Shown here in pieces: positions 4,145-54,220 of a stretch of DNA of 64,000 bases. Position 1 is the first letter of the stretch; the number at the start of each line of letters is the position of its first letter. The DNA lies in contig OX638375.1 in NCBI GenBank assembly GCA_951813575.1, forward strand, positions 3,498,752 through 3,562,751, given 5' to 3'. A program made the translations under genes and the position numbers. The stretch comes from Candidatus Binatia bacterium. Its GTDB lineage: Bacteria; Desulfobacterota; Binatia; UBA9968; JAJDTQ01. The notes under the pieces are model-generated. The model did no database searches. It saw nothing but the letters and a program-made list of their open reading frames with translations, and was not told the origin of the DNA.

Positions 4145-5170
4145 TCAACGGGCGCCGAACCGTTCGCGCCAGGAATCCACACACGCCGGGTTCACCACGG
4201 TCTCGGGCACTTGGCCGGCCAGCACCGTGAGTAAGCTCTGGGCGGCCATGCGCTCACCTGATACCTGCGACTGCGGGTTCGTGCCGATGATGTGCGGGGT
4301 CATGATCAGCCGCTCGGGGTCCACCTGCCGGATGGGATCCGACATGGGCAGCGGTTCCTCTTCGAACACGTCCACGGCGGCGCCGGCGATGACTCCATCG
4401 TTCAACGCCCGCGCCAGGTCATCCTGCTTGACGACGCCCCCGCGGCAGGTGTTCACCAGGTAGGCGGTGGGCTTCATCTTCTTGATTTCGGCCAGGGTGA
4501 TGAGCCGGCGCGTCTCCTCGGTGAGCGGCGTGTGCAGGGTGACGAGGTCGGATTCCCGGAGCACGGTGTCCAGCGACACCAGCTCCACACCCAGGTGCTG
4601 CACCGACTCCTGGGTGATGTAGGGATCGCAGGCGATGAGCCGCATCTCCCACGGACCCAGGCGCTTGGCGACCTCCTTGCCTACCCGTCCGAGGCCGACG
4701 ATGCCGACGGTGCGGCCGACCATCAGGTTGCCCCGGTGCTCGTTGCGCTTCCAGCCGCCCTCGCGCAGGAGCTGCTGGTTGTGCACCAATCGCTTGAACA
4801 GCATGGACATGAGCCCGACGGTGGCCTCGGCCACGCCGGTGAAGTTCTCCCGCGCCGGGCTGTTGCACACCAGGATGCCCAGCTCGGTAGCCGCCTCCAC
4901 GTCGATGGTCTCGTAGCCGATGGCGGCCTTGATCACCCCTCGCAGCTTCGGGCAGCGGGCCAGCACCCCGCCGCTGATGAAGTCCCGTTGGGCCGCCCAG
5001 ACGGCGTCGCTGTCGCCTATCAGAGCCACCAACTCGTCTTCCGTATAGCGGTGCTTGGGATGCTCGTCCTGGTCCTTCCCCAGCACGAGCTCGCAGCCCG
5101 CCTCCTCCAGCACGTCCCGCCCCACCGAAAGCTTGTGCGGGGCCGGGATACAGACCTTGTTGCCTTGCAT
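4145..5170 (-). CDS. D-isomer-specific 2-hydroxyacid dehydrogenase (NAD-binding)
   Basis: 341 aa with the GxGxxGxxxA Rossmann motif (GIVGLGRVGKEVAKRL) and the catalytic R/E/H arrangement typical of the D-2-HADH family. Confidence 0.85.
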   Translation of the reverse strand: MQGNKVCIPAPHKLSVGRDVLEEAGCELVLGKDQDEHPKHRYTEDELVALIGDSDAVWAAQRDFISGGVLARCPKLRGVIKAAIGYETIDVEAATELGILVCNSPARENFTGVAEATVGLMSMLFKRLVHNQQLLREGGWKRNEHRGNLMVGRTVGIVGLGRVGKEVAKRLGPWEMRLIACDPYITQESVQHLGVELVSLDTVLRESDLVTLHTPLTEETRRLITLAEIKKMKPTAYLVNTCRGGVVKQDDLARALNDGVIAGAAVDVFEEEPLPMSDPIRQVDPERLIMTPHIIGTNPQSQVSGERMAAQSLLTVLAGQVPETVVNPACVDSWRERFGAR

Positions 5171-11398: not shown

Positions 11399-14559
<3,161 letters not shown>

Positions 14560-14560
<1 letters not shown>

Positions 14561-16092
14561 CACTCCACTTTTCCATGCACGAACCAGCCGTGGCGTTTGG
14601 AATCGTAGTAGACCCACAGCCATGGGCCCTCGCCGGCGCGGACGAAGTGGTACTCGCGGTGCACCCCGGTACCCGAGCCCCACCATCCTCCGGAGATGAT
14701 GTAGGGGCCGGCACTCTCCCGGCCAAGAAAGCCGCCGCGGGTTCGGGCGCCGTCAACTGGGGCGTCGCCGGCCCGGGCATCCCTGACCACGGGCTCGGCC
14801 ATTGCAGCGGGCGGCGCGGGGTCCCTGAGCCGGACGGGCTTGGGGAAGAAACGCCGCACCAGCGGGCGCAGCCGGACCGGTCGCGGCCTCGGCGCCGGCA
14901 CGTCTTCCATGGGCTCCCAGGTGAAGCGCGCCTCCGGAAGATGCCCGGCACGGGGCCGCGCCCGCAGCAGCGCGCCGTCGCCGAACCGGGCGCGCAGCCG
15001 CGCCAGCGCGCGGTTGGCCGCGTCGGGGTCGCGCGCGGAGGCGCCGTGGAAAAGCTCTCCCTGCCGGATATCCGGCGAAGCTCCCCGGAGCTCCATGAGG
15101 ATTTCCGTCACCCCGGCCGGCAGCTCCGTGGCTTCCAGGCGCAGCCGCAAGAGGTCCAGGATCTGTGCCCGGTCCAGGATGGGCCGGGCCGGCCGCAGGG
15201 TCTCGGCCTTCTCCGACTTGTCGTCCAGGCGGAGCTGGAGGAGGAGGGCGGTCATCACCTCGTGGCGCTGCTCCAGCGCTTCAAGCAAAGGCTCCAGCAA
15301 CTCCTCCATGAGCACCGCCAGCCGCTGGCGGTCGCTCTCCGGGTAGTCCAGGAAGACCCCCGCGGCGGTGGGCTCGGACGGCGTCTCCGGATGGAGCGGG
15401 CTCCACAGGTCGCCCGCGGCCAGCCGGTGGAGACGGTGGGCTTCCCGTCCCAGCCGCGAGCGCACCTGGGACGCGGGCAGGTCCAGGAAGCCGCCCAGGG
15501 TGTGGATGCCGAGCCGGGCCAGGAGGTCACGGACCTTGGGGGCGAGGTCGAGACGTTCGATCCGGACGTCGCGGACATGTTTGTGCTCTTCCTCGGGCGT
15601 GCGGAAGACCACGACCCGCTCGCAGGCCCTGGCCGCGGCATAGCTGCCGAAACGCGAGAACCCCACGGCCACGGTGTTGCGAAGGCCGGCGCCGTCGAGG
15701 TCGCCGTGGATGAGCCCGGCCCATTCCTCTAGGCGGGGATGGAGCAGGGAAAGCCCCGAGGCCCCGAGCCAGAACACACCGGGCTCGTCCCGGGAGGGCT
15801 CCACCTCGGCGGCGAAGCGCCGCAGGCGTGGAACCAGGCCGTCCACGGCCTTGTGGATGGCCGAGCGGGAAATGACGTCCGCCCGGAGATGGCGCGAGAG
15901 CGCAAGCCCCGCGCCATAGCTCATGCCCGGGAGGATGCACATGGCCCGCGCCCGATGGTTTACCCAGAGGATGGTCCCCTGGGCCTTGTCCCGGTCCACC
16001 ACCGCGGCGGGATGGTCTTTCCAGTCCGGATGGTCCCGGAGCAGCAGTTGCAGGGGAAAGGCCGCAACGTCAACACAGGCCATCCGTTCCAC
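14560..16092 (-). CDS. imuB: ImuB (catalytically dead Y-family polymerase homolog) of the mutagenesis cassette
   Basis: N-terminal UmuC/DinB-like fold (ACVDVAAFPLQ...). It sits between imuA and dnaE2 and overlaps the imuA stop. Confidence 0.85.
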
Positions 16093-16717
16093 GGCACGAC
16101 TCCATGTGGCTCCATCCCGGAGCCCCCCGCTTGTCCTTGACCATGCGGATTTCCCAGTCGAAGCGGCTGAAGGCAGTCCTCGTGATACTGCCCTCGCCGT
16201 GAAGCGACACCAGGGGCCCCAGCGAGGGCGCGCCCCGCTTCTTGCGGGTGAGGCAGAGGAGCGCCGCGTGGTGCTTCCGGGCCAGCGCCGCCAGGCGGCT
16301 CTGGACCGCCATGTGCATCCGCGCCTCGGCCTTCAGGTCCAGCACCACCAGGCCGAACGCGCCGGAGCGCAGTAGCTGGTCGGCCGCGCGGGACGCGGCG
16401 AGGGCGTCGGGGACCCGGACCACCGGCAGGGCCTCGAGATCGATGCCCCACTCGGCGAAATCCGGCGGGAAGAAGATCGAGTTGCCGAAGCCGATCCACG
16501 CCGCGGGCTCTCCCCGCTGCTGGGCCTGGAGGATCAGCGCGGCCGCGGCGGTGAGGGAAGGGGCCGCGCCCGAGTCCGACATTTCGGTGAGCCGTCCGGC
16601 CAGGGAGGACAGGTTCCAGGCCCTCGGGGTCTCGCGGACAGGCCGGCGCCGTGGCGCCGCGGGGGCGGGGCCCGAAGCCGGTATGGCGTCGTGAGTCTTT
16701 TCGGCGAAAACGTCCAT
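16070..16717 (-). CDS. imuA: ImuA (SulA/RecA-like) of the mutagenesis cassette
   Basis: 215 aa with a RecA-like core (AWIGFGNSIFFPPDFAEWGIDLEALPVVR..GAFGLVVLDL). It sits between lexA and imuB. Confidence 0.75.
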   Translation of the reverse strand: MDVFAEKTHDAIPASGPAPAAPRRRPVRETPRAWNLSSLAGRLTEMSDSGAAPSLTAAAALILQAQQRGEPAAWIGFGNSIFFPPDFAEWGIDLEALPVVRVPDALAASRAADQLLRSGAFGLVVLDLKAEARMHMAVQSRLAALARKHHAALLCLTRKKRGAPSLGPLVSLHGEGSITRTAFSRFDWEIRMVKDKRGAPGWSHMESCRGTDGLC

Positions 16718-16804
16718 GAAAGCTCTCCGTGTCCCGCAAAAGGCAAAGGATCGGGCGCCGGGAACACGCTGTCCCGGATGCCGCGCCCATGCGACCCTTC
16801 GGGT

Positions 16805-17419
16805 TTACCCTTCCAGATAGCGTCTCACCTCCACCACCTTGCCCAGGACGGTGCACTCATCGGCCCTGGGGACGATGGTTGCGAAAGCCGGGTTCTCCGG
16901 GTGCAGCTCGATCCGGCTCCGGCGCAGCCGGAGCCTCTTGATGGTGGCCTCGTCGCCCACCAGGGCCACGACGATGTCGCCCGAGGCGGCTTCCGCCTGC
17001 TGCCTCACCACGACGATGTCGCCCGGAAGGATACCCGCTCCGGTCATGCTTTCCCCCTGGACCCGGAGCCCGAACACTTCCTCCGAGCCCCGTGACTGGA
17101 CCGGGATGTAGCCTTCGCATTCCTCGATGGCCGCCCGCAGCCCGCCGGCCTGCACCCGCCCCAGCAGCGGCACGAACAGCGTCCCAGGCTCCCGGGGCAG
17201 GCGATAGCCTCTGGATTTGCCGTGCGCCTTGACCAGCCGCCCCTCGGCTACCAGGCGTTCCAGATGCTGGCGGGCCGTCTGCACCGCCCTGAACCGGAAC
17301 GCCTCCTGGACCTCCCGCACCGTGGGAGGAAGCTCCTCCAGGATCCGCCTGCGCACGAACCGGTAAACCTTGTCCCGGGTCTCCCCCGGTGGAGTGAAGG
17401 GTGTCATGAGGATGCGCAT
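16805..17419 (-). CDS. lexA: LexA repressor (S24 peptidase, autocleaving)
   Basis: N-terminal winged HTH, then the A-G cleavage site region and the S24 Ser/Lys motifs (GESMTGAGI..GD, IKRL). The start is either ATG 17419 (MRIL) or ATG 17407 (MTPF). Confidence 0.85.
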   Translation of the reverse strand: MRILMTPFTPPGETRDKVYRFVRRRILEELPPTVREVQEAFRFRAVQTARQHLERLVAEGRLVKAHGKSRGYRLPREPGTLFVPLLGRVQAGGLRAAIEECEGYIPVQSRGSEEVFGLRVQGESMTGAGILPGDIVVVRQQAEAASGDIVVALVGDEATIKRLRLRRSRIELHPENPAFATIVPRADECTVLGKVVEVRRYLEG

Positions 17420-17443
17420 ACCAGACTTTTGTCTGGTATGCAA
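17415..17443 (-). promoter_or_regulatory. Candidate lexA operon promoter with a perfect 22-bp palindrome in the spacer (putative LexA operator TACCAGAC-N4-GTCTGGTA)
   Basis: The minus strand reads TTGCAT-accagacaaaagtctgg-TATGCG-cat. The palindrome ATACCAGACAAAAGTCTGGTAT (17418-17439) lies between the -35-like and -10-like hexamers, immediately before the lexA start codon. Confidence 0.45.
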
Positions 17444-17470
17444 GGCAAATCGGATCCGCGACAAAGCGAA

Positions 17471-18154
17471 TCAAGACTCGAAGGCTCTCTTTTCATAAAC
17501 GGCTGCTATCTGCTGGCCATCCCAAACGTAACAGAGGTGCCGCTCCTGGCGGGCGTTGGAAAGCAGCAGCGGGCGGAAGGTCGCGACGCACTCGCCGCCG
17601 TCGTGGCGTATGCTGTCGTAGGCGATGCCGTTGGAGCCTGCCTCGCGGAGCGTTAGTGCGAGGCGCCGGGCGACTGTGTAGTCGTCACGGCGGTAGACTT
17701 CGGGAAAGGCTGCCTGCCGGCCGCGAAGGTCGTGAAGGTCGCCCTCCAGATCGATCGCATAGACCCGCATATCGAGCTCCATGCGGGACTGTGCCGTGGC
17801 GCGCATGAAGCGCGCGCGATGATGCTTGGTTTCTGCAATGGCCGTGTCGAGATCCTTGGCGGCATAGAACACGCCGTAGCTGCCGTCGGAGAATCGGCTA
17901 CCTTCCGGGTTGAGATGGGTGAAGGCCGCCATGATCACGCTGGCGCCAGGGCCGCCGATGCGATCCTCGGGCGGCACCAGCCGGATATCGCCGGCCTCGT
18001 CCCGAAGCCGCGGGTTGGTCAGCGACTCCAGTTCGAAGATCGCTTCCAGATCCCCAGGATCGGCCACCCGCTCGAACAGTTGAATCGGCGGGAAGCGGCT
18101 TGGGACGATCCGCCAGCAGGGCTTCCACTCGAGGCGGACGACCGGCGGCGTCAC
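17471..18154 (-). CDS. RES-domain toxin (type II toxin-antitoxin system, NAD-targeting family)
   Basis: R..E..S signature (GSRFSDGSYGVFYAAKDLDTAIAE ... YDSIRH). A GTG start overlaps the antitoxin stop (GTGA). Confidence 0.8.
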   Translation of the reverse strand: MTPPVVRLEWKPCWRIVPSRFPPIQLFERVADPGDLEAIFELESLTNPRLRDEAGDIRLVPPEDRIGGPGASVIMAAFTHLNPEGSRFSDGSYGVFYAAKDLDTAIAETKHHRARFMRATAQSRMELDMRVYAIDLEGDLHDLRGRQAAFPEVYRRDDYTVARRLALTLREAGSNGIAYDSIRHDGGECVATFRPLLLSNARQERHLCYVWDGQQIAAVYEKRAFES

Positions 18155-18567
18155 GCCCAGCCGCCGCGCTGCGTATCGAGGTACTGGCGTACGACGAAGA
18201 GGTCGGCAACCTGACCCGACAACATGCGCTCCAGAGCCGAGCGCCCGCCGAACAGCGGGGCGCTGTTCGGCCGCTTCACCCATTCATCGGCGGCGGTTTC
18301 GTCAGGCAGCAGGATCTGGAGCGCCTTGTAGATGCCGAGGATGTATGAGATACGCTCCAGCGTGTCCTTCGGCAGGGTTGTGTTCGGGTTCTTCTTCCAC
18401 TTAAAGAAGGTCGACCGCGCTGTCACGCCGAGAAGTGTCATCTGTTCGGCGACCGATAGGTTCCAGAGGCCGGCAATGCGAAAGAAGGTGCGCAACGCCG
18501 GTCCGGAATGCCCCTTTCGGTCGATCATCGTCGTCGAACGGGCGGGCACTTGCATAACTAACTCCAT
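18151..18567 (-). CDS. Xre-family antitoxin with DUF2384 toxin-binding domain (partner of the RES toxin)
   Basis: C-terminal DUF2384 region (TLERISYILGIYKALQILL..EWVKRPNSAPLFGGRSALERMLSG). It lies immediately upstream of the RES gene. The likely start is ATG at 18555 (MQVPARS...) after GGAG. Confidence 0.75.
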   Translation of the reverse strand: MELVMQVPARSTTMIDRKGHSGPALRTFFRIAGLWNLSVAEQMTLLGVTARSTFFKWKKNPNTTLPKDTLERISYILGIYKALQILLPDETAADEWVKRPNSAPLFGGRSALERMLSGQVADLFVVRQYLDTQRGGWA

Positions 18568-18767
18568 TTATATCCTAGTTAGCAAAATAGTCTATATTCA
18601 TACTGAACGCAAGGCAACCTGGGAGGGCATTTACCTCACTGGTATGCCTTGGATCCCATACCACTCGATCCATTTCATGGTGTAAGGGGCTCCACCGTGC
18701 TGGCCGGGCAAAAAATAACAAAGTCCCCGACCGGTGCCGAACCCCCGCCGACGTTACTTCGCAGCGT

Positions 18768-19355
18768 CTACCGCCCCTCGGCGGCGTCGCACTCGAACTT
18801 CCTCCGCGCGGTCCGATGCGCGAGCCTCCCGGCTTCTCCTGAGAGGCTCGGGATGTTCCTGGGCCGGGACGGAGCACGAGACGGTGAATACGGACCGGGG
18901 GCCGAGGTAAGTGTTCCGTCAGCCCGTGAGGTGGGCGAATTAGCGCCTTTCGAGGCCGGGCCACCGCCACGCAGCACGTAGCGGAACCGGTCCCCGAACC
19001 TCTCGTAGCGCGCCACCGCCCGGTGTGTGCCCTTTCCCTTGCGGTTGGCGTAGCTGTCGTGGATGAAGCCGTGCTCGAAGACGGGCTCGCAAACCATGCA
19101 GAAGGCGTGATGGACCACCCGGTCACGGAACGGGGCAGCGGAAACCAGGCGGTGCTTGGGATCGAAGATCTCCATGGTCCGGTAACGGCCCGGCCGGTAG
19201 CGGCCGCGCCGAAACTCGTGCTCCAGTCGCAGTATCTCCTTTTCCTGGTTGGCGAGGAATGCCGCGGCGCCCGGCTTGGCGCGCCTTGCCCAACGCCGCA
19301 CGCCGCGCTGCCGCCGAAAGGGCCGGGAAGGAAGCAATGGCATCGAAGAGGTCAT
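18768..19355 (-). pseudogene. DGR-type reverse transcriptase, N-terminal fragment only (truncated after the YVLRG region; the rest of the ORF is non-RT sequence)
   Basis: Residues 40-128, ...YRPGRYRTMEIFDPKHRLVSAAPFRDRVVHHAFCMVCEPVFEHGFIHDSYANRKGKGTHRAVARYERF..RYVLRG, match RT domains 1-2 of DGR RTs. After that no frame shows RT motifs 3-7 (no YxDD). The gene overlaps avd by 4 nt. Confidence 0.65.
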
Positions 19356-19726
19356 CCGCCTTCATGGCTTTGGTGCGCCTTTCTCCAGGCGCCAATGCGA
19401 TGTCCGGTCTCGTCCAGAGAGCGTGCAGCGTATTCGTAGCGGCGGGAATCGAGACAGCGGAGGCCATAGGCCAAGCGGAACAGAAATCGCAGCTTCTCGA
19501 TGCCGAGGTTGGCGTGGGCGGGCGGCGCGTCCCGGCGCCGGGTGTAGGTGGCTTCTATCAGGGCCTCGAGGACATCCATGGCGGTACTCTGGATACGGTC
19601 GCCGAGAAGGAATTTGTGCGCGCGGGGGAAGCGGTTGACCGCCGGCACGAGCCACAGGATGAAGCGGTAGGGACAGTCGAGGGCCAGCCCGGTCTCCCGC
19701 GCCCTGTCGCTGGCGATCTCGGTCAA
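19352..19726 (-). CDS. avd: Avd (accessory variability determinant) of a diversity-generating retroelement
   Basis: 124-aa basic helical-bundle protein (…FPRAHKFLLGDRIQSTAMDVLEALIEA…KLRFLFRLAYGLRCL..YEYAARSLDETGHRIGAWRKA) resembling bAvd. TTG start. It lies between the FGE-fold target and the RT. Confidence 0.7.
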   Translation of the reverse strand: MTEIASDRARETGLALDCPYRFILWLVPAVNRFPRAHKFLLGDRIQSTAMDVLEALIEATYTRRRDAPPAHANLGIEKLRFLFRLAYGLRCLDSRRYEYAARSLDETGHRIGAWRKAHQSHEGG

Positions 19727-19825
19727 TTAACCCTCGCGGTTACAGGTCTGAAGCAGGATTTCTCATGAGAATCGTCCAGTGGGCTCCGCCCCCTGGACCC
19801 CCCAAGATGTAAAGAGGTAAAGGAT

Positions 19826-21646
19826 TCATGGGATGAGCGTTCGGGCAATGCGGAACCCGCTGCTGTTGCCCCGGAGCCCGGCGGAGAGCCTGACGCGGAA
19901 GGCCGACCGGAGGATCCACGGCTTGTTGAGCCAGGAACCGCCGCGCAACACGCGGGAGTCACAGTCCCGGCTGGACGTCCAAGCGCTTCCGTCCGTCGGA
20001 GCTCCCAAGTAATTCTCATGCCAGCAGTCCTCCACCCACTCCCATACATTGCCGTGTACATCATGCAAACCAAAATCGTTCGCCGCGAAAGAACCCACCG
20101 GAACTGTCTTACTCCGACGCATGCCCTTGCGACCCGATCCATACGTATAGTGTCCGTTGTAGTTCGCCTGAGCCGTTGAGATCGTGGACCCAAAGTGGAA
20201 CGGCCCCGTCGTCCCCGCTCGCGCCACGTACTCCCATTCCGACTCACTCAACAGCCGGTACCTCTTCCCCGTCTCCCGCGACAGCCACTCCACGTACGAC
20301 TTCGCGTCCCTCCAACTCACATTGATCACCGGACGACGACCACGACCCCATCCTCCGTCATCCGGCCGGTATCCGCCACACCCTCCCCCCGCCACGCACG
20401 CATCCCATTCCCCAAACGTTACCTCGTACTTCCCTACCGCAAGCGGCCCCGGTATCCTCACCCGGTGACGCGGTTCTTCGTCGATACTGCGCTCCGCTTC
20501 GTCCAGTGGCGAACCCATCATGTAACTCCCGCCAAGTATCGCCACCATCTCCGGACACTCAGCGCAATCGCGGAATACGAACGCTCTCAAAACAGCCGAG
20601 TCCCGGCGCACCAGCGCCACCCCCACCGCCGTCTTGCCCTTCGGCCCTCTGATCGCAATGTCTGCCCCCGCCTTCACCAACAACTCGATGATCTCCGAAT
20701 GTCCGTGCACCGAAGCCATGAACAGCGCCGTCGCCCCGTCCGCCACCTGGACATCCGGGTCCGCCTTCGCCTTCAACAGCGGCCCCACCATCAGCTTGTA
20801 TCCCTTGTTCGCCGCATGCATCAGCGCTGTCCAGCCCCGCCCGTCCCGAGCGTTCACGTCCGCACCGGCCTTCAGTGCCGCGTTCAATCCGTCGATGTCT
20901 CCCGCACTGACCGCCCGGTGAAGCACATCCGGGCGCGGAGCCGGCGCGACAGGCCGGCGCGGCCGGGCGGGTTGCGTCGACTTCTTTTCCGTTCCACCCC
21001 GCTGACGCTTCGCTACCGCCCTCAGAACCCGGATCCCGTCCGGTGTCAATTCATCGGATGGCGCCAGCCTGGCGTCGCGCAGAAACGCCCCATAGGCCTT
21101 CGCCGTACGGCCGCCCCATTGGCCATCCGCGGGCCCCGGCTTATAACCGAGTACTGCCAGCAATTCCTGGGCCTCCCTAATCACCTGGACGGGCGGCGGT
21201 CCCGCAACCTGACGGGCGGGAGCGGTAGAGGGTCGCTTCGCAGTCGCCGGAGCCGGCTTGTCGCCTCCCGCCGCCGACTGCCACGCCCTGGCGCGATCTT
21301 GCGCTGTGGCTACCTGCTGCGGCGTCATCTTCGCGGCCAGCGTGTCGCGCTCCTTCAACGCCTCCATCTCGCCCCGGCTGGCCGCAAGATTGAACCACAT
21401 GTGCGCCAGCACGTAGTCCTGCGGCGCGCCCAACCCCTTGAGATACAGCCGCCCCAGAGCCAGCATCGCCCGGCGGTCCCCCGCGCCCGCGCCCGCCCGC
21501 CACTGTTCCAGCGCCTCAGCCGGGCGACCCGCCTTCCAGGCCTGCTCCCCCGCTTCATAGTCCGCTACGGCCGGAGGCGTACAGAAGATCAGCAATGATA
21601 TAGTCAACGCCGCGGAACGGATTGCATGCCGAATGTCTATTCTCAT
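19826..21646 (-). CDS. DGR target protein: secreted multidomain protein (signal peptide, Sel1 repeats, PG-binding domain, ankyrin repeats) with a C-terminal FGE-sulfatase/C-type-lectin-fold domain carrying the variable region
   Basis: Start MRIDIRHAIRSAALTISLLIFCTPPAVA (signal peptide, GGAG upstream). Sel1-like LALGRLYLKGLG, PG_binding_1-like ELLAVLGYKPGPADGQWG, ANK repeats (GWTALMHAANKG..GATALFMASVHGH) and FGE hallmarks (YRLLSESEWEYVARAG, GNVWEWVED, RVLRGGSW). Confidence 0.8.
   Translation of the reverse strand: MRIDIRHAIRSAALTISLLIFCTPPAVADYEAGEQAWKAGRPAEALEQWRAGAGAGDRRAMLALGRLYLKGLGAPQDYVLAHMWFNLAASRGEMEALKERDTLAAKMTPQQVATAQDRARAWQSAAGGDKPAPATAKRPSTAPARQVAGPPPVQVIREAQELLAVLGYKPGPADGQWGGRTAKAYGAFLRDARLAPSDELTPDGIRVLRAVAKRQRGGTEKKSTQPARPRRPVAPAPRPDVLHRAVSAGDIDGLNAALKAGADVNARDGRGWTALMHAANKGYKLMVGPLLKAKADPDVQVADGATALFMASVHGHSEIIELLVKAGADIAIRGPKGKTAVGVALVRRDSAVLRAFVFRDCAECPEMVAILGGSYMMGSPLDEAERSIDEEPRHRVRIPGPLAVGKYEVTFGEWDACVAGGGCGGYRPDDGGWGRGRRPVINVSWRDAKSYVEWLSRETGKRYRLLSESEWEYVARAGTTGPFHFGSTISTAQANYNGHYTYGSGRKGMRRSKTVPVGSFAANDFGLHDVHGNVWEWVEDCWHENYLGAPTDGSAWTSSRDCDSRVLRGGSWLNKPWILRSAFRVRLSAGLRGNSSGFRIARTLIP
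19829..19960 (-). other. Putative DGR variable region (VR) at the 3' end of the target gene
   Basis: The C-terminal codons are ctc aac aag ccg tgg atc ctc cgg tcg gcc ttc cgc gtc agg ctc tcc gcc ggg ctc cgg ggc aac agc agc ggg ttc. A run of NNC codons (ctc, aac, atc, ttc, gtc, ggc, agc) sits at the positions that are AAC in template repeats of FGE-fold DGR targets. Confidence 0.5.
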
Positions 21647-22099
21647 CCTGATTGAACTCCGTGGCGAAAGGCTTCCTGAAACCTTCGAAGGGCACTCCGC
21701 CGTCCGCACCCGCCCATACCAACAGCCACCGCATTGGCGCAGAGTGGACTGGTAGGTAGTTTCCAACTCCTCCCTCCGCCCTCCGATACATCGCCTTGCA
21801 GTGCGGCCGTGGCTTAACCTGGAGGTCACACGTTGGTTTCCAGCACAACCCGTCTTCCGACTGGATAAACCCTCGAACAAAAGTCTTCAACGGCGGCGGT
21901 CCAAAGCACCGCCGTCAGGCAGGAGACGAGCCCCCATTTCGCGCTAACGCTCATGCCATCATTCTCCGCGTTACAACGGCGGGAGTGGATCGACCCGCAC
22001 GCTTTTCGCCCCTCGGTCCCTTGAGAACGTCCGAACTATGGCTAGAGACAGAAGCGCTGGCGGACTCGATGCTACCTCTATGCACGGGAACCGGCCAAC

Positions 22100-22537
22100 G
22101 ATTATTGAATGCTGCCACAACTCCGTTTTCTACAATCTCTAGAATAGGTACCACGACTACCTCCAGTTCCCGCTGGTCGTCGTGTCCTTTGTTGCTCCAG
22201 ATAGCGTTGGCGTTCCGCCTGGCGCTGCCGGTTGAACTGAATAATGTTCTGAAGCGTATTCTGGAATGCCTTCTGTGCGCCCCCGCTGCCTCCGAAGGTG
22301 GTGGTGCTGGGTGCGCTTGAGCCCAACTGCTTCTTCCAGGCTGCCGCGGCTTCGCGCTCCTTGAGCAAAAGTCTTCAACGGCCGGAAGACGGCCGTGGAG
22401 GCGCATTTGACGGTGTCTCGGGCGTTCTCCAAAGCATCGCGAAGACCTGCCTCCGCGGAAGGAGCAGCCAACGCCACCCCAGCGGCTAGGGCCGCGGGCA
22501 GAACGGTGGAGCGAAAACATTTCGGCAAACGAGTCAT
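22100..22537 (-). pseudogene. Possible frameshifted small secreted protein (signal peptide, then Q/R-rich region in a second frame)
   Basis: ORF 22157..22537 starts MTRLPKCFRSTVLPAALAAGVALAAPSAEA (signal peptide). The plausible continuation AWKKQLGSSAP..QNTLQNIIQFNRQRQAERQRYLEQQR is in the +1 frame (ORF 22102..22368). Confidence 0.25.
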
Positions 22538-22547
22538 CTCGTGCCCC

Positions 22548-23030
22548 CTATTCGGTCAGCGACGTCAGGAACAGCCGTTGCAACCCGCAACTCCCTCCGC
22601 TCAGCCGGCAAAGAGCGAAGACATAGAGACGGCCGTCCTCCGGAAGTGACGCCACCATCAGGCGATGGTTCCCGCCCGCATCGAGCGTCATGTCGAGTCG
22701 CAGTCCCGCGACGAATCCCGCGGGGAGACGCGCCAGCGCGCTGGCGGTTGCGGCGTCCGTGTCGGGAGCGCCGGCCCGGATCGCGGCCGCATCCCTGGCC
22801 GCGAGCGCGTCATCGATCCTCTCCAGCGTCGGACCGAGCCACACCGGGCGGCCCGCGGCCCATTGCACGCGCATCGCCATATTCCACGCCAGCCGTGGAA
22901 AAACCGCGCGCATGTCGTTCGCCGCGGCCGCGAATGTCACGCCATCCCGGAAGCCCTCCAGAGCCGTAGCCGGATGGGCCTTGCGAAACGATCCGAGCCG
23001 CCGGGCCGGGATGTCGCGGAGAGCCGCCAT
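22548..23030 (-). CDS. Hypothetical protein (no family recognised)
   Basis: 172-aa ORF 22548..23066, with MAALRDIPARRL as the likely start. Composition is protein-like but there is no identifiable motif. Confidence 0.3.
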   Translation of the reverse strand: MAALRDIPARRLGSFRKAHPATALEGFRDGVTFAAAANDMRAVFPRLAWNMAMRVQWAAGRPVWLGPTLERIDDALAARDAAAIRAGAPDTDAATASALARLPAGFVAGLRLDMTLDAGGNHRLMVASLPEDGRLYVFALCRLSGGSCGLQRLFLTSLTE

Positions 23031-23300
23031 CGGTCCAGCCTTGTCCTTGGTCCATGGGGGTTGCAACGCGACGGGCGCCGCAGCATCGGCAAATCCGCCC
23101 TGCCGATGTCGGCGACACGGCGCTTGCCGAGCCGCGGGAGGATACGCCCGTCGATGATCTTTCGATGGAGCGCGGCGGTGGCGGGCTTCAGATGGCCGGG
23201 CGCGTACTCGTCCATGAAGCGCCGGGCGAGGTCGGCCATGGTGGCGCCGCCCGCCTTGCGGGGAGTCTTCCCTTCGAGGTCGCGCCCGGTCCTGGCGAGG
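22950..23300 (-). pseudogene. Tyrosine integrase N-terminal (core-binding/SAM-like) fragment, degenerate
   Basis: The minus-strand frame reads ..GRDLEGKTPRKAGGATMADLARRFMDEYAPGHLKPATAALHRKIIDGRILPRLGKRRVADIGRADL. This resembles P4-type integrase core-binding domains (TFxEvAxxWlexHxxxlkpsTxxxyxxxLexxilPxlGxxxixeI). No catalytic domain follows. Confidence 0.4.
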
Positions 23301-23970
23301 GTGACGATCTCTGCGGCGCGCGGCCGCCGGGGTGATGGGACCGCGGATTTTCCGACCGTCCCCCGGTCGAACTCTCCGGCATCAGCTGGACACGAAACCG
23401 GCGATTGACCCCGGCCCGGCGGGGCGCTACGGTGACTTTCTCCGAGGCACCAAACTGACTTGAGGACATACGCGCGCTTGCAGCGACTTAGTATTGGTTG
23501 AATGGGGTTACATATCGATTACGGCTCAAATGAGAATATTCCTAACATATTGATAAATAGGCCAAAAAACGATTTCAATGCAGAAAGGACCCGCAGATTC
23601 ATAACGCTATTTGTGAGACAGGACACTAGATAGTTAGCTGTTCCTGGTAAGATCGACCTCCATTTGAGTCGAGGACGATCATTCGGCGGCGGACCAGTCG
23701 GAGGGATCGACCGCCGGCCGGAATGGATCGTGGACACGAAGGCATCTTGCCTTGAACTCTGCCTCGCCCATGGTTGCCATTGGATTCACCTCTTACGCAG
23801 GGAGCACCTGAAAATATACAACAGTACACTCATAGTATACATGTTCAAGCTGTGCTGTCCGATCGCGATACCTGTCGAGCCCCGATTCGCACCCCGCTAC
23901 ACTATCTGTTAAAAATTTTCCCATCTCGCTCCGAAACCCACGAACGACACCGGGGCCGGGAGGATGCAGC

Positions 23971-54145: not shown

Positions 54146-54220
54146 TGGGCGGTCGCCAAGTGGTAAGGCCCCGGATTTTGGTTCCGGTATACGAAGGTTC
54201 GAATCCTTCCCGCCCAGCCA
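54146..54220 (+). tRNA. tRNA-Gln (anticodon TTG)
   Basis: Cloverleaf folded by hand. Acceptor tgggcgg/ccgccca, anticodon stem ccgga/tccgg with loop ttTTGgt, T-arm gaagg-ttcgaat-ccttc, discriminator G, encoded CCA. Close to E. coli tRNA-Gln. Confidence 0.8.

Follow-up and report, generated by a model that had tools for sequence, protein, structure and literature searches.

The last ~40 codons of a Sel1-ankyrin-FGE gene in a Candidatus Binatia bacterium (GenBank assembly GCA_951813575.1, contig OX638375.1) are a genuine variable region (VR) of a diversity-generating retroelement (DGR), of which only part is left at this locus. The stretch of DNA analyzed, hereafter the window, comprises 64,000 nucleotides of this contig (positions 3,498,752 to 3,562,751). 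Compared with the template repeats (TRs) of relatives, the VR bears an adenine-specific pattern, and an accessory avd gene adjoins it; an intact reverse transcriptase (RT) and a resident TR are both missing from the window, which makes the locus a DGR remnant rather than an active DGR. Since the cassette here is defunct, the footprint records past mutagenic retrohoming and not ongoing variation. Most likely, the VR became frozen in recent times and has ceased to be diversified from here, a reading to which we assign a probability of about 0.6. The gene and its variable end are placed as follows.

19826–21646, minus strand: target (variable-protein) gene; homologues begin near MRIDIRH, so that the ATG at 21646 is the likely start; stop codon at 19826–19828
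19835–19954, minus strand: VR of 120 nt, codons 643–682, homologous to the TRs of relatives

The VR was first suspected in a sequence-only reading, in which 12 codons at the 3′ end of the gene were listed as NNC codons standing at AAC positions of known FGE-type templates. All of them are present on the minus strand and end in C (651 CTC, 652 AAC, 656 ATC, 657 CTC, 661 TTC, 663 GTC, 665 CTC, 669 CTC, 671 GGC, 672 AAC, 673 AGC, and 674 AGC), and 11 of the 12 are indeed AAC in the TRs of the closest relatives. The exception is codon 657, a scaffold leucine: all TRs of relatives have CTC here, and homologues hardly vary at it. Three further adenine-bearing TR codons that have changed in the window (653 AAA>AAG, 655 AGG>TGG, 666 ACC>TCC) were absent from the list. 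The interval proposed for the signature covers the VR and includes two extra codons (D641 and S642) upstream of the TR-homologous stretch at 19835–19954; the last 42 codons of the target (19829–19954) read RVLRGGSWLNKPWILRSAFRVRLSAGLRGNSSGFRIARTLIP. All 11 AAC-derived codons of the window VR are still NNC, including, among four-fold-degenerate codons, three CTC, one GTC, and one GGC, to which the ACC-derived 666 TCC may be added. The pattern is beyond chance because the background of the target gene is poor in C at third codon positions: outside the VR block, 23% of its codons end in C and 51% in G, and 11 of 11 NNC codons have a probability of ~9e-8 on the gene's own third-position composition (~1e-4 on that of the other window genes, with C at 38–53%). 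The scaffold codons (GGSW, RSA, GFR) had been described as free of NNC bias, which proved incorrect, as five of ten end in C (GGC, TCC, GCC, TTC, CGC), a share above the gene background and far below 100%.

The decisive evidence comes from relatives. Related loci, denoted here by L-numbers, were fetched, namely those encoding the closest targets (68–83% identity) and 160 further loci, and all TR comparisons use the TRs of these other organisms. AAC-rich TRs are present in L002, L163, L164, L165, L003, L029, and L038; those of L002, L163, L164, and L165 are 98–100% identical to each other and encode RVLRGGSWNNKPRNLRSANRNRNTAGNRNNNNGFRIARTL. Between the window VR and the relatives' TR, 18 of 30 adenine positions differ, against 4 of 90 non-adenine positions; when only the columns invariant in five TRs are counted, the differences fall at 16 of 27 adenines and at none of 66 other positions (Fisher p=3e-11). 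Among 99 homologues, column entropy reaches 3.0–3.8 bits at the eleven AAC codons and at codons 653 and 666, and 2.6–2.7 bits at the two AGG codons (655, 664), compared with ≤0.8 bits at scaffold codons. Substitutions are thus concentrated at the adenine-bearing TR codons, as the sequence-only reading had expected of orthologues; these are far from identical at such codons. As in FGE-type (CLec1) variable proteins of the TvpA-like kind (category b of Wu et al., 2018), the VR lies at the C-terminus of the FGE domain, and its AAC-encoded variable positions are set in an invariant GGSW...RSA...GFR scaffold. Together with the adjoining avd gene and RT remnant, the TR comparison and the homologue variability support the footprint of adenine-specific mutagenic retrohoming that was originally proposed.

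The rest of the VR also carries the mark of a template. Directly upstream of it, the window gene is 76–83% identical to these relatives (56–70% at third positions), whereas 86 of the 90 non-adenine positions of the VR are identical to the relatives' TR; third positions match at 35 of 39 sites in the VR and at 139 of 200 upstream (p=0.005). An identity so far above that of the upstream sequence is as expected from copying out of a conserved TR. The four non-adenine differences comprise a constant CGC>CGA change and those at codons 659 (TCG), 675 (GGG), and 677 (CGC), the last three all synonymous. The 126-nt TR itself is 98–100% identical across four assemblies (L002 335–460, L163 5467–5592, L164 4652–4777, L165 8265–8390), and is either constrained far more strongly than the genes that it rewrites or recently spread. 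VR indels that shift the target frame were observed in L001 (9705–9829; protein P0002) and L163 (3793–3911; protein P0012), resulting in long out-of-frame C-terminal tails, which could reflect imprecise homing, decay, or long-read assembly error. For VRs or TRs of the same lineage in metagenomes, an exact-flank pattern gave 0 matches and a protein-guided scan only relatives at ≤65% identity; no same-species contig was found in the public collections searched.

The target protein has 606 aa when translated from the ATG at 21646, while the mechanically called open reading frame spans 19826–21880, with a TTG at 21880. Its N-terminus is signal-peptide-like, and Pfam identifies Sel1 (8e-8), weak peptidoglycan-binding, and Ank_2 (2e-15) domains, followed by a C-terminal FGE-sulfatase domain of the C-type-lectin subtype (E=1.7e-52). 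PF03781 spans residues 441–680, and the VR occupies the C-terminal ~40 codons of this domain. The top matches of the domain among solved structures are PvdO (5hha, 3.4e-56, over the whole 244-aa domain) and TvpA (2y3c, 5e-15). The family is large, with >1500 homologous proteins; exact-sequence look-ups of the window Avd, the window target protein, and P0003 returned no record. Neither the FGE domain nor the RT had relatives in the viral collections searched, and a prophage origin is thus unsupported. The codon usage of the target gene (19826–21646) is unusual for the genome, with G at 51% and C at 25% of third positions, most strongly at 20000–20800, and the plus-strand GC skew over the gene is −0.34 to −0.38. 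In neighboring genes, C takes 36–54% of third positions, and in most of them it is at least as frequent as G. The odd usage suggests that the DGR island either came from a foreign source or is held to a composition specific to its strand.

Downstream of the target, the following remains of the cassette were recognized.

19352–19726, minus strand: avd (accessory variability determinant), 124 aa, intact, TTG start; Pfam bAvd E=2e-12
18970–19365, minus strand: RT pseudogene, residues 1–132 of ~354, from nucleotide alignment with three intact RTs
18575–18969, no strand assigned: unrelated filler between the RT breakpoint and an Xre/RES gene pair, where relatives hold the rest of the RT and the TR

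The avd gene lies directly downstream of the target, overlaps the start of the RT, and is 87–89% identical to the avd genes of L163, L164, and L165. The RT is disabled by two lesions, a +1-nt insertion near 19284 that shifts the frame and an abrupt end of homology at 18970, past the residues RYVLR; the catalytic region with YVDD is gone. A tblastn search with the L003 RT covered residues 26–132 at 81% identity and found no second RT in the 64-kb window. No TR lies in the window either: blastn (word size 7) with the VR and with the relatives' TR found only the VR itself, and a repeat search of the 17–23 kb region found no TR. The 395-nt filler shows no similarity to any fetched locus and contains no TR-like sequence.

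At the 3′ end of the target and past it, the following candidate signals for homing in cis were recognized.

19835–19858, minus strand: 3′ end of the VR, with a boundary resembling an initiation of mutagenic homing (IMH) site, GGGTTCCGCATTGCCCGAACGCTC; CGA in all VRs, CGC in all TRs
19806–19821, minus strand: spacer motif TTTACCTCTTTACATC, directly past the stop codon; kept in the window, L002, L029, L038, L059, and L001
19774–19798, minus strand: GC-rich hairpin GTCCAGGGGGC-GGA-GCCCACTGGAC, 36 nt past the VR end; 11-bp stem with one G/A mismatch

The TR/VR homology ends after ACGCTC. The constant CGC>CGA change at this boundary is the sole non-adenine difference in the cognate TR/VR pairs of L163 and L165, and L164 has one more; among the four cognate VRs of L163–L165, three thus show just this one non-adenine change relative to their TR. 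A relaxed form of the spacer pattern, TTAYCTCYTTAC, is matched by 17 of 86 VR copies. At the pair that is mismatched in the window (G/A), the 27 related hairpins have either G-C (26 hairpins) or G-T (1 hairpin), and the window copy is the only one of 28 with a non-pair at that position. It still folds, at −11.1 kcal/mol as DNA, compared with −15.5 kcal/mol for the perfect version in relatives. Across the 28 distinct hairpins, a set pre-selected for pairing, stem covariation amounts to 34 double-change cells vs. 14.5 in shuffles, and 0 of 500 shuffles reach the observed value. A second GC-rich hairpin, such as CCGGCGCCCC-CACG-GGGGCGCCGG, stands just past the TR in L002 (~459–482), L029 (~4939–4962), and L038 (~12400–12423); its sequence varies between lineages with the pairing apparently preserved, and it may belong to the section of the DGR RNA that lies downstream of the TR. 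This hairpin is missing from the window, where the TR region is deleted.

How recently the VR was written can be judged from the decay of other copies. Across 92 VR copies, NNC retention drops as divergence rises (rho=−0.67), and an old VR remnant at L165:12625–12744 keeps only 6 of 11 NNC codons and has 16 mismatches at 90 non-adenine positions. The window VR shows no such decay, and so its writing is recent. Two accounts fit this: recent loss of the cassette, or a further cassette at another site that keeps rewriting the VR. Dating the freeze from the three extra non-adenine differences was also attempted and proved uninformative, as these sites also vary between TR lineages; the differences may reflect the lost TR of this genome.

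Upstream of the target, the island is truncated as well. Past the TR, the islands of relatives contain two conserved genes, here named A and B, and then often a second target. In the window, only the following pieces were found.

21734–22537, minus strand: gene B remnant, residues 1–56 and 473–513 of 518 in different frames (tblastn with L001 and L002 gene B, blastn)
22548–23093, minus strand: gene A remnant, 5′-truncated, residues 130–310 of 310 (tblastn, 77% identity to L001 gene A; blastn)
~23094–23470 (approximate), minus strand: N-terminal piece of a tyrosine integrase of phage type, next to the breakpoint of gene A

Gene A encodes ~310 aa and gene B ~450–520 aa, the latter with a charged central part of low complexity; neither has a Pfam match, and the N-termini of both resemble signal peptides. 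They stand between the TR and the next target in L001 (5423–7921), L002 (518–2888), and L003 (14457–16499), their window counterpart being 21734–23093, and they look like part of the cassette. The integrase fragment matches Phage_int_SAM_3 in Pfam (E=3.3e-5; 24.5 bits vs. a cutoff of 22.6) on a hand-joined translation of two frames. No tRNA or attachment site was found near it, the only tRNA in the window being at 54146, and an Rfam scan gave nothing relevant. A search for direct or inverted repeats joining the breakpoints at ~18970 and ~23093 returned only chance matches of 8–9 nt. Downstream of the dead DGR, the region 11399–18567 contains an Xre/RES toxin-antitoxin pair, lexA, two open reading frames without a Pfam match, and a DnaE-type alpha subunit. 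The lexA-to-DnaE arrangement resembles the lexA-imuA-imuB-dnaE2 SOS mutagenesis cassette by position only, imuA and imuB being unconfirmed. In L001, L163, L164, and L165, too, the DGR islands have toxin-antitoxin pairs (PIN/PhD, ParDE) at their flanks.

Decay of the cassette is recurrent in this lineage. Intact cassettes with the order target-avd-RT-TR were found in L003, L029, L038, L165, and L123, and intact RTs in L003, L029, L038, L088/L089, L123, and L165, while the RT of L163 is frameshifted. In the window, L164, L059, L060, L001, and the second copies of L003 and L165, the RT is truncated or fragmented, or only avd is left. The second, decayed copies lie close to the intact cassette (L003 17265–18056, minus strand; L165 12016–12744) and include avd and RT fragments and a VR remnant, which indicates that the islands grow by duplication and then erode.

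The history of the locus may be envisaged as follows. The ancestral cassette would have had the coding-strand order target(VR)-avd-RT-TR seen in present relatives. Its TR would have been transcribed, and the RT together with Avd would have copied the TR RNA into cDNA, misincorporating opposite adenines. This cDNA would then have replaced the VR, guided by the 3′ boundary of the VR and by the GC hairpin downstream of it. In this way, eleven AAC (Asn) codons and four other adenine-bearing codons would have been randomized to NNC-type codons on the ligand-binding face of the FGE/C-type-lectin fold, giving the present variant, rich in Leu, Ile, Phe, Val, Gly, and Ser on its binding face, as the outcome. 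A later rearrangement presumably deleted RT residues 133–354 and the TR; the RT stub would also have been frameshifted by +1 and the upstream companion genes truncated beside the integrase fragment, with the target and avd staying intact. The TR matching this VR is predicted to be CGCGTGTTGCGCGGCGGTTCCTGGAACAACAAACCGAGGAACCTCCGGTCSGCCAACCGCAACAGGAACACCGCCGGGAACCGGAACAACAACAACGGKTTCCGYATTGCCCGCACGCTC.

In favor of a recently frozen variant are the truncation of the flanking genes A and B beside the integrase fragment, the mismatch in the hairpin, and the recurrent decay of cassettes in the lineage. Several observations weigh against it. A VR without decay (11 of 11 NNC, and only three extra, synonymous non-adenine differences) fits ongoing service equally well, and the three differences date nothing. 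The sequence analyzed spans 64 kb, and elsewhere in the genome there may be another cassette whose TR matches; the genome's own cognate TR has never been seen. In addition, the +1 frameshift in the RT may stem from faulty sequencing, an explanation not open to the truncation, although a chimeric assembly at 18970 is formally possible. That a related, intact cassette of this lineage outside the window would still diversify the VR in trans, with the dead local RT as a redundant copy, is the less probable reading, one that we doubt and nevertheless take seriously. DGRs reach non-adjacent and remote targets (PMC5758913). Within this family, one L163 TR keeps two targets ~8 kb apart in register with one non-adenine mismatch each, and genomes carry several target paralogues and sometimes several cassettes. 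The window itself keeps the CGA boundary, the spacer motif, a foldable hairpin, and an intact avd, and its NNC retention is that of active VRs. Against service in trans, neither a TR nor an RT was found within 64 kb, the hairpin is mismatched at a pair that is standard in all 27 related hairpins, and the VR has three extra non-adenine differences, compared with none in three of the four cognate VRs of L163–L165 and one in L164. In the one genome where remote service could be checked, the remote L011 VR is out of register with the L003 TR, with 12 non-adenine mismatches. On balance, a variant fixed by loss of the local cassette, and probably not rewritten from elsewhere in the genome, is preferred.

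The cassette might also be intact in reality, with the RT truncation, the missing TR, and the truncated upstream genes all being artefacts of a chimeric or collapsed contig. Several related contigs do resemble long-read assemblies with single-base frameshifts (the L163 RT; the L001 and L163 VRs), and the region is repetitive at the family level, with paralogous targets. Such an account would need three independent false lesions (the break in the RT at 18970, that in gene A at 23093, and the loss from within gene B), and the flanks are ordinary single-copy chromosomal genes (the Xre/RES pair, lexA, a dnaE-type polymerase, and an ABC transporter); with similar decay present in many independent assemblies, we consider it very improbable. 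The chance that no retroelement was ever involved, the NNC pattern being chance or codon bias and the C-terminal variability a product of normal divergence or of positive selection acting on a binding loop, is negligible. It could appeal to a genome of 66% GC, in which many genes have C at 40–50% of third positions. It is refuted by the adenine-specific differences to the relatives' TRs, by the preference of the target gene itself for G over C at third positions, and by the pattern of variability among homologues; the adjoining avd and RT remnant and the AAC-rich TRs of relatives speak against it as well.

The locus adds one more variable protein that has outlived its machinery, with unusually clear breakpoints, and leaves knowledge of the DGR mechanism unchanged. 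For annotation, it is useful that a DGR target was rightly recognized from its codon footprint alone, although template and enzyme are gone; programs that look for TR/VR pairs would miss the locus. A large family of Sel1-ankyrin-FGE targets is also indicated, in which about half of the examined cassettes are decayed. Many genomes with Sel1-ankyrin-FGE genes bear names suggesting, as we assume, symbionts of sponges or other hosts. Neither this architecture nor its apparent enrichment in metagenome-assembled genomes with host-associated names was found in the literature searched (one library). It is tempting, though speculative, to regard these proteins as a large undescribed class of secreted proteins with eukaryote-like repeats, diversified by chromosomal DGRs in a repeated cycle of "diversify, then lock in". 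If so, a near-invariant TR (98–100% across genomes whose targets have diverged by ~20%) would rewrite several paralogues, and the RT and TR would be lost repeatedly, with the selected variant, avd, and the cis signals left in place; in the window, a fresh lock-in would then be caught as a snapshot.

Among solved structures, the best match of the target's FGE domain is PvdO (5hha), an FGE-fold protein of pyoverdine maturation, which indicates the fold and not the ligand; PvdO is not known as a DGR target. The mechanistic prototype is the DGR of the Bordetella phage BPP-1, with the order mtd-avd-TR-brt (PMC3240598; PMC6182149). BPP-1 and the window lineage have in common adenine-specific mutagenesis, a requirement for Avd, a VR that forms the 3′ end of the target gene, a difference between VR and TR at the 3′ boundary, and a downstream GC hairpin. 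In contrast to BPP-1, the window element is chromosomal and without viral relatives, the order in its relatives is target-avd-RT-TR with the TR after the RT, and the RT and TR are missing from the window. Homing in BPP-1 requires a GC hairpin with stems of 7–10 bp located 4–34 bp from the VR (Guo et al., PMC3240598), whereas the hairpin of the window lineage has an 11-bp stem and a 3-nt (or C-GRA-G) loop and lies 36 nt from the VR end.

Closer parallels are found among FGE-type targets, the largest class of DGR targets (19%; Wu et al., 2018, PMC5758913). TvpA of Treponema denticola and the window protein share a C-terminal VR in a C-type-lectin domain of the FGE-sulfatase subtype, AAC codons in the TR that yield Asn-derived variable positions, multiple target paralogues per genome, and targets that outlive the cassette; T. 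denticola isolates without RT or TR retain FGE-type targets (PMC4891356). With 606 aa and several domains (Sel1, peptidoglycan-binding, ankyrin, and FGE), the window protein differs from TvpA, a single-domain lipoprotein, and the FGE domain of the window protein is much closer in sequence to PvdO (3e-56) than to TvpA (5e-15). The window also keeps avd and an RT stub, while the listed T. denticola isolates have no RT at all. In cyanobacteria, Nostoc all3226 shows remnant TR-VR homology and has no RT, and Anabaena sp. 90 carries a degraded cassette; the authors proposed that the diversification parts are removed once a good variant has been selected (PMC7517822). There, as in the window, the variable-protein gene outlives the diversification machinery, in another lineage and with another target architecture, and the remnant in the window consists of VR, avd, and RT stub with no TR. 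Given these documented remnants in T. denticola and cyanobacteria, the finding is of a known type, and the locus is an ordinary decayed member of a known system in which targets are already recorded as outliving their cassette.

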